A DNA stretch of 222 bases from Escherichia coli (GTDB taxonomy: Bacteria > Pseudomonadota > Gammaproteobacteria > Enterobacterales > Enterobacteriaceae). The notes beneath the pieces are model-generated. The model saw only the letters and a program-made list of their open reading frames with translations, was not told where the DNA came from and searched no databases. Shown here piece by piece: positions 1-222 of the stretch. The DNA lies in NCBI RefSeq assembly GCF_003334335.1, contig NZ_QOWQ01000238.1; one strand, given 5' to 3'. The position numbers and the translations under genes were made by a program. Every line of letters begins with the position of its first letter. The stretch's first letter is position 1.

Positions 1-80
1 AATAAAACAATCATCAAATACAGAATTTTCGTAGGCTGAGGGATTGCTGAAAATAATTTAGTGCGTCCTTCAATGGTCAT
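1..80 (-). CDS. Possible 5' end of a protein-coding gene running off the window (N-terminus MTIEGRTKLFSAIPQPTKILYLMIVL...); product unknown
   Basis: The reverse complement has ATG at 80-78 followed by 26 stop-free codons to the window edge. The peptide ends in a hydrophobic stretch (ILYLMIVL) compatible with a membrane segment. Against: no Shine-Dalgarno upstream (sequence before the ATG is cagcacaatctg), G at first codon position is low (4 of 26), and the frame is also open upstream of the ATG, so the start is ambiguous. A second in-frame ATG lies at 14-12. Confidence 0.2.
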   Translation of the reverse strand, partial: MTIEGRTKLFSAIPQPTKILYLMIVL

Positions 81-118
81 CAGATTGTGCTGATGTAAAC
101 AGTTAAGCACAATTTGAT
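79..118. repeat. Imperfect inverted repeat (13-bp arms, 14-nt spacer); candidate operator or RNA stem-loop
   Basis: Read directly: 84-91 ATTGTGCT is the exact reverse complement of 106-113 AGCACAAT. Pairing extends to 79-91 against 106-118 with one G/T mismatch (83 vs 114), which would be a G-U wobble in RNA. The stem is AT-rich with only 3 G-C pairs in the perfect 8-bp core. An 8-bp inverted repeat alone is not rare in AT-rich DNA, so function is uncertain. Confidence 0.4.
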
Positions 119-137
119 TATTTGACTTTCTTCTTTT

Positions 138-153: not shown

Positions 154-222
154 ATTAAAGATGTAACCGTATACAAATTGTTGATGAATAAAGAGACAGC
201 ATAAGTGGCAGGCCAGTCGTAA

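Follow-up and report, generated by a model that had tools for sequence, protein, structure and literature searches.

A strand-asymmetric palindrome upstream of eib in lambdoid prophages of Escherichia coli, tentatively read as an atypical terminator or insulator

What is a 13-bp palindrome doing directly against a possible start codon in Escherichia coli DNA? The question arises from a stretch of 222 nucleotides (hereinafter the window, meaning the whole of it), in which a reading made from the sequence alone had noted an inverted repeat at 79–118 beside a minus-strand ATG at 80–78, and had offered as explanations structure-controlled translation initiation, a leaderless or short-leader transcript, or an ATG that is not a start. 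The repeat itself is confirmed: a repeat search of the window recovers two arms of 13 nt each (79–91 and 106–118), which are 92% complementary (12/13) and separated by a 14-nt spacer, the only non-Watson–Crick position being 83/114, a G–T on the plus strand. Of 3000 dinucleotide-preserving shuffles of the window, 0.47% contain an inverted repeat that is 13 nt or longer, has no more than one mismatch and encloses a loop of 3–30 nt. The palindrome is thus a genuine feature and no artefact of composition. A search against the covariance models of Rfam 15 gave no match better than E = 4 in the window and none with E up to 1 across the surrounding 1.2 kb. The palindrome and the elements around it are as follows, in window coordinates unless stated otherwise:

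69–79, plus strand: 11-nt unit TTCAATGGTCA, tandemly duplicated in 15 of 55 copies; it abuts the 5′ edge of the stem, which stays intact
78–80, minus strand: candidate ATG, rejected as a start codon; position 78 is C in 42 and T in 13 of 55 copies
79–91, plus strand: left arm ATCAGATTGTGCT, whose 5′ end is ATCAGATT, a motif shared with the best-conserved promoter-proximal block
92–105, plus strand: 14-nt loop GATGTAAACAGTTA, of which the TAAACAGTTAA part is shared with the diverged FHI-type upstream region
106–118, plus strand: right arm AGCACAATTTGAT, in which T114 pairs with G83 as G·U on the plus strand only
119–137, plus strand: T-rich tract, with 14 T in 19 bases, which adjoins the 3′ end of the stem on this strand only
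138–153, no strand assigned: perfect CRP core TGTGA-N6-TCACA (TGTGACTGACTTCACA), 10/10, a neighbor of the hairpin lying outside it
336–364, window-equivalent (L001 6336–6364; L178 about 1563–1607): palindrome I4, ACATCAGAT-N11-ATCTGATGT, overlapping the −35 of the proximal promoter-like site

The window belongs to an intergenic region of lambdoid Eib prophages and lies ahead of eib, which codes for an immunoglobulin-binding trimeric autotransporter. It matches 27 of 5,426 complete E. coli genomes at 70–71 places, all of them chromosomal and none with an annotated feature beneath the window, as well as eight phage records, among them prophage P-EibA of E. coli ECOR-9. It is 98.6–100% identical to the DNA between the tail-fibre assembly gene and the eib/YadA-like genes of E. 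coli prophages, and in every locus inspected it lies inside a gap of 680–800 bp. This gap is flanked on one side by plus-strand genes of a lambdoid prophage for the tail fibre and for tail-fibre assembly (DUF4376), and on the other by a plus-strand gene labelled ‘YadA C-terminal domain’, identified as eibA in the record of P-EibA. From the end of the window to the plus-strand eib gene there are 187 nt, the eib ATG being at window-equivalent 410; the center of the palindrome is about 311 nt upstream of that ATG, and the hairpin is about 350 nt past the stop codon of the tail-fibre assembly gene. A repeat of the REP or MITE type was considered and rejected, the element being restricted to the eib locus (about three per genome) and A/T-rich. 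We did not find the window sequence in the literature that we searched. Downstream of eib there are always orf-156 and orf-60 (L001 7815–8285; L002 8304–8477), which belong to the PHROG families phrog_6585 and phrog_9340, with no function assigned there; neither displays a DNA-binding signature, orf-156 has no Pfam match, and neither is a recognizable regulator.

Conservation was assessed in an alignment of 55 copies, comprising the window, 12 genome, phage or viral loci and 42 metagenome loci, the last found with a flank-anchored pattern that left the hairpin unconstrained and fixed 119–134. The hairpin has zero variants among the 42 metagenome loci, and together with the T-rich tract that follows it is invariant in 55/55 copies, positions 119–134 being fixed by the pattern in 42 of these and 135–143 being unconstrained. 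Fourteen columns of the window vary, none of them in 79–118 (P = 0.019) or in 79–143 (P = 0.0065), and variation continues as far as the 5′ boundary of the stem, with substitutions at 69, 71, 75 and 78. The copies are 92–100% identical, such that they offer no covariation and their invariance is weak evidence. Across loci, the sequence hardly varies between window position 20 or so and the eib ATG, beyond which divergence among the eib coding sequences sets in within some ten codons. The duplication of TTCAATGGTCA is mainly seen in the eibG-like STEC lineage. At window 4–17 there are two sharply different haplotypes, represented by 27 and 25 copies, and a 117-nt indel at L002 5821–5937 (window-equivalent about −47), missing in L001, L003 and L008, carries GCAATACAGAATTTTCGTATTGC, a repeat of ATACAGAATTTTCGTA at window 18–33. 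In viral contigs, a scan that specified the arms and left the loop free gave 120 loci, of which four were homologous with identical hairpins and the others chance hairpins.

The minus-strand ATG does not survive this comparison. As the sequence-only reading had it, the CAT at 78–80 is a minus-strand ATG that covers the two outermost stem pairs, and the 20 nt 5′ of it are devoid of Shine–Dalgarno-like GGA, GAG and AGGA-type 3- and 4-mers. The codon is, however, ATA in 13 of the 55 natural copies (24%). The frame stays open on the 5′ side of this codon, reaching a TTG at 176, and the length of the mechanical ORF differs by locus (78 aa versus 161 aa); it is broken by a 2-nt deletion at 43–45 in some copies, meets a second 2-nt deletion and the 117-nt indel further downstream, and has the two divergent haplotypes at 4–17 within its bounds. 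Substitutions at 43, 69, 71 and 75 follow no third-codon-position pattern in this frame. Across the 27 RefSeq genomes no CDS is annotated under the window, the sole minus-strand annotation being an automatic call in one phage record that starts at GTG 152; the peptides of the ORF match no PHROG family, and all real genes flanking the window are on the plus strand. Because of the ATA copies, the broken frame and the missing annotation and PHROG match, we conclude that the ATG at 80–78 is not a start codon, exactly as the fallback explanation had allowed, and that it stands by chance in a non-coding part of the prophage. The minus strand hides no gene here, translation is not controlled in any unusual way, and structure-controlled initiation at this codon is left without support by the same observations.

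The mirror-image hexamers that had been pointed out in the arms (TTGTGC, 17 nt, CACAAT on both strands, with 3/6 and 4/6 matches) are likewise present as described, and the accompanying caveat that they follow automatically from the palindrome is borne out. As a sigma70-like minus-strand promoter, they do not rise above background: a 7/12 match is at chance frequency, with 11 in the window versus 10.4 expected in shuffles, and at the stricter threshold of 9/12 the window contains no sigma-70 promoter. A leaderless transcript would start at the A of the codon with a −10 about 7 nt upstream; the only candidate −10, CACAAT at 89–84, ends 3 nt before the ATG and gives a minus-strand transcript start near 77, 3′ of the A at 80. 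Since that start lies beyond A80, the proposed promoter and the proposed start codon are mutually exclusive, and a leaderless or short-leader transcript from this ATG is unsupported, with the predicted start falling inside or past the codon.

On the plus strand the palindrome has more to offer. The plus-strand RNA is predicted to form 13 contiguous pairs including the G·U wobble (−16.5 kcal/mol, z = −4.0, 0/200 shuffles as good); the minus-strand RNA has an A·C mismatch in its place (−11.4 kcal/mol, z = −3.1). The mean pair probability is 0.93–0.94 in all plus-strand contexts, up to the 684-nt intergenic region, and 0.61–0.88 on the minus strand. Compared with the usual features of intrinsic terminators, the stem is within range (about 5–15 bp with several G–C pairs are sought; there are 13 plus-strand pairs, four of them G–C and one G·U), and so is the T tail (at least 5 T in 8, 0–2 nt past the stem; TTTGACTT has 5 T at offset 2). 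No comparable T tail exists on the minus strand. The 14-nt loop falls outside the usual 3–8 nt and is the sole point on which the hairpin departs from the criteria of a standard terminator scan (loop at most 8 nt), which does not call it; more generally, we attribute this miss to the long loop, the few G–C pairs and the interrupted T tract. When the loop limit is raised from 8 to 16 nt, the plus strand yields just two hits from the tail-fibre gene to eib, one of them being the hairpin; 1.35% of shuffles contain a T-tailed stem of 10 bp or more. In upstream regions matching the window (hereinafter window-type), the GC-rich terminators beside the tail-fibre gene are all minus-facing, and there is no good plus-strand terminator just after the tail-fibre assembly gene; the position of the hairpin between plus-strand tail-fibre genes and plus-strand eib is compatible with a terminator at the end of a plus-strand unit. 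Two or three minus-oriented intrinsic terminators are stacked downstream of the plus-strand tail-fibre assembly gene (L001 5736–5753 and 5817–5842; L002 about 5751–5768), with no evident minus-strand gene nearby that would need them.

Diverged eib upstream regions place the hairpin in a wider frame. We compared the loci eibC/D/E, PhiR12_3, GER2, KY202, SCU-171 and FHI_NMBU_11, in which eib-like genes lie behind the same tail-fibre genes without a match to the window. These diverged types align with the window-type from the CRP site to the ATG with a mean column identity of 68%, and the segment 5′ of the CRP site is unalignable across types. An exceptional hairpin is present in the window-type only (z = −3.3, versus −0.9 to +0.8 in the five other types), and the palindrome is missing from the eibC/D/E, GER2 and FHI types. 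The strong stem, which five other eib upstream types lack, is lineage-specific, and eib control in general does not require it. The FHI and GER2 types, which have no strong hairpin (z about 0), possess canonical plus-strand terminators right after the tail-fibre assembly gene, and the presence of the strong stem correlates with the lack of another upstream plus-strand terminator, a correlation drawn post hoc over four architectures.

What is retained across types is the CRP core immediately downstream of the hairpin. When the 681-nt region is shuffled, 0.04% of the shuffles contain a perfect core and 2.2% one that matches at 9/10 or better. Each of the six upstream types has a CRP-like core of 9/10 or better, placed at −256 to −277 relative to the ATG, those of the window-type and KY202 being 10/10, and 7 of the 10 core columns are invariant across types as against the mean identity of 68%. 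Among the 55 copies the site varies at spacer positions 144 and 145 only. A first global alignment had placed a GER2 CRP-like site under the left arm of the hairpin; this was rejected, the multi-type alignment pairing the CRP sites together. A search on either strand for a CRP-dependent −10 at class I or class II distance (−41.5 or −61.5 spacing) yielded none that is convincing or consistent across types. An 8-nt inverted repeat, ACAATTTG at 109–116 and CAAATTGT at 174–181, is near-symmetric about the center of the CRP core at 145.5. The conditions that induce Eib are stationary phase, static or low-oxygen culture, 37 °C and complex medium (PMC5450701; PMC4352079), its regulation has been called complex and unresolved (PMC5450701), and a passage of PMC7649339 cites ibrAB as activating Eib. 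The conservation of the core suggests that eib is under CRP control, which would fit the stationary-phase induction.

Closer to eib there are further conserved elements. A promoter-like site TTGAGC-17-GATAAT lies at window-equivalent 364–392, and TTTGTATACA just 5′ of the ATG is invariant in all upstream types as part of a conserved block TTTGTATACA(G/A)A. Our literature search found no mapping of an eib promoter. An eibG deletion was complemented by eibG with 168 bp of upstream DNA on pGEM (preprint 10.64898/2025.12.25.695649), a fragment that would exclude the window if that locus has the eibG-like upstream type; on that condition a working promoter would therefore lie near the ATG, bearing in mind that the plasmid is multicopy and that read-through from the vector is possible. 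Such a promoter agrees with the proximal promoter-like site and the conserved block. Overlapping the −35 of that promoter-like site is the palindrome I4, of which the left arm of our hairpin resembles a shortened copy: CATCAGATT and CTGATGT each occur at both window 78–96 and window-equivalent 337–364 (I4), the CATCAGATT of I4 being at 337. CATCAG/CTGATG has four occurrences in 684 nt (P = 2e-4), CATCAGATT three in 12 kb versus 0.12 expected, and across all upstream types ATCAGATTTTCTTTA is the proximal block with the highest conservation; elsewhere in the 12-kb locus the arm core AGATTGTGCT is found no more often than chance would give. I4 is kept as a hairpin with varied arms, the FHI version being a 17-bp perfect stem with a T tail and the EibC version carrying AATCAG/CTGATT, an apparently compensatory change; I4 could serve to attenuate or insulate transcription directly 5′ of the eib promoter. 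Between the CRP core and I4, TAAGGAAATTCCGA (L001 6265–6278, window-equivalent 265–278) agrees with 11 of the 14 positions of the RcsAB-box consensus TaAGaatatTCcta (PMC4325325), among them all five that are conserved; the pattern TAAG.N5.TCC.A is retained in the FHI and EibC types, and the GER2 type has TACG. The same TAAGGAAATTCCGA forms the left arm of a stem-loop annotated in the GenBank record of P-EibA (AF151091) at 3777–3814, window-equivalent 269–306, and that record annotates none at 79–118. The annotated stem-loop is akin to ours in belonging to the same conserved upstream block on the plus strand, with perfect 11-bp arms around a 16-nt A/T-rich spacer, but differs from it in sequence, in position and in its RcsAB-box-like left arm. 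A palindromic hexamer, GTATAC, occurs three times, at window 169–174 and window-equivalent 380–385 and 401–406 (P about 1e-3).

How, then, is the palindrome best explained? The account that we favor, if tentatively and as one possibility among several, is that it is an atypical and probably weak plus-strand intrinsic terminator, a 3′-end hairpin or an insulator. Transcribed on the plus strand, it would yield an RNA hairpin followed by a U-rich tract, distally upstream of the prophage eib gene, and this would stop or insulate transcription coming from the tail-fibre side before it reached the CRP-containing control region of eib; both the plus-strand transcription of the region and termination at the hairpin are what we infer from this arrangement. 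Its strand-specific stability, the plus-strand T tail, the distribution complementary to that of the FHI and GER2 terminators and the absence of variable columns argue for this account, as do the 13 contiguous pairs, which exceed what a protein half-site needs, so that selection for base pairing is favored. Against it stand the 14-nt loop, the G–C pairs numbering only 4 of 13, the interrupted T tract (TATTTGAC), the distance of about 350 nt beyond the tail-fibre assembly stop and the absence of the stem from five other eib types; a Q-modified polymerase, moreover, would ignore the hairpin during lytic growth. The nearest parallel is offered by phage ‘morons’, promoter–gene–terminator cassettes of lambdoid phages such as HK97 and HK022 that are flanked by terminators or insulating hairpins. 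Like the terminators flanking morons, our hairpin is stable, is followed by a T/U tract, is on the strand of the flanking genes and lies between a late tail-fibre and an accessory gene; unlike them, it has a 14-nt loop (3–8 nt is usual), an A/U-rich stem with four G–C pairs and an interrupted U tract, it escapes the standard scan, and its role as a terminator is a prediction. Several of the same facts could be read as those of a functionless, lineage-specific by-product, left behind when an I4-like CATCAGATT...CTGATGT hairpin was copied by partial duplication or template switching, with the recent spread of the cassette mimicking conservation. We think this doubtful. It would account for the restriction of the strong stem to the window-type (z of −0.9 to +0.8 in the five diverged types) and for the identity of at least 92% among all copies; judged by eye, the arms also look like matched short insertions around a GCTGA..TAAACAGTTAA..ATTTTGAT core shared with FHI, and the complementation by eibG with 168 bp upstream would make the window dispensable for basal plasmid-borne expression (preprint 10.64898/2025.12.25.695649). 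However, the lack of variation in 79–118 and 79–143, with variants piling up at the edge of the stem, is not what it predicts, and the strand-specific G·U together with the T tail is more order than a neutral relic requires.

Were the palindrome to act as DNA, it might be an operator for a putative dimeric or looping eib regulator, 47 bp upstream of the CRP site, which could also cooperate with I4 at 336–364 over the −35 of the proximal promoter. The invariance of arms and loop in 55 copies would suit an operator, as would the sharing of CATCAGATT and CTGATGT with I4, about 259 bp downstream, the recurrence of CATCAG/CTGATG and CATCAGATT above expectation, with ATCAGATTTTCTTTA as the best-conserved proximal block, and the regulated expression of eib (PMC5450701; PMC4352079; ibrAB as cited in a passage of PMC7649339). 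We nevertheless regard it as unlikely, given that the arm core AGATTGTGCT does not recur beyond chance in the 12-kb locus, the spacing of the CATCAG/CTGATG pair is unequal at the two sites (6 versus 15 nt), the eibC/D/E, GER2 and FHI types lack the palindrome, and the downstream orf-156 and orf-60 are without a DNA-binding signature. We know of no operator geometry with 13-bp arms and a 14-bp spacer, and to our knowledge neither the arms nor the loop contain a known transcription-factor consensus, comparison by eye with LexA, FNR, IHF, TyrR, GalR/LacI-type, ArcA, PhoP and Hin/Gin crossover sites giving half-site matches at most. A use of the palindrome by the minus strand is very unlikely, whether through a leaderless or structure-gated ORF at 80–78 or through a CRP-assisted divergent promoter (TTGTGC-17-CACAAT, start near 77) for a non-coding RNA that would end at the minus-oriented terminators near the tail-fibre gene. 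The two or three terminators oriented for such an RNA, and the A-rich tract (137–125 on the minus strand) and CRP core upstream of the proposed −35, would be in keeping with it, but beyond the loss of the ATG in 24% of copies, the unconserved frame, the missing Shine–Dalgarno sequence, homologues and RefSeq CDS, and the chance-level 7/12 promoter with its start near 77 inside or beyond the ATG, the DNA under the putative RNA is the most variable part of the region, with the 117-nt indel and the two haplotypes. The usual helical faces in CRP class I spacing are −61.5 and −71.5, and the CRP center would be off these at about −68.5.

A bolder form of the operator account, which we consider highly improbable, would join the two palindromes: 78–118 and 336–364, sharing CATCAGATT/CTGATGT, would form an operator pair across which a putative regulator loops the DNA over the CRP and RcsAB-like sites, switching Eib on in stationary, static culture. 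Conceivably, this regulator would be the IbrAB activator system. Pairs of distal and proximal operators with a CRP site between them are known from gal (OE/OI), ara (O2/I1) and deo. The eib region resembles these in that related dyads (78–95 and 337–363) flank a perfect CRP core 5′ of the regulated gene, but it differs from them in having candidate operators with no named regulator, an unequal dyad spacing and a distal dyad that is part of a far longer stem and that the other eib upstream types lack. If true, looping between such a pair would give the eib genes their first described cis-regulatory logic.

The Eib adhesins confer immunoglobulin binding and chain-like adherence in LEE-negative STEC. 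None of the explanations of the palindrome amounts to unusual biology, and it is the surrounding region that offers the more useful leads for Eib regulation, namely a set of candidate cis-elements comprising the conserved CRP core, the RcsAB-box-like site and the conserved proximal hairpin and promoter blocks. To these, one lineage adds an extra terminator-like hairpin, which may insulate eib from phage late and tail-fibre transcription.
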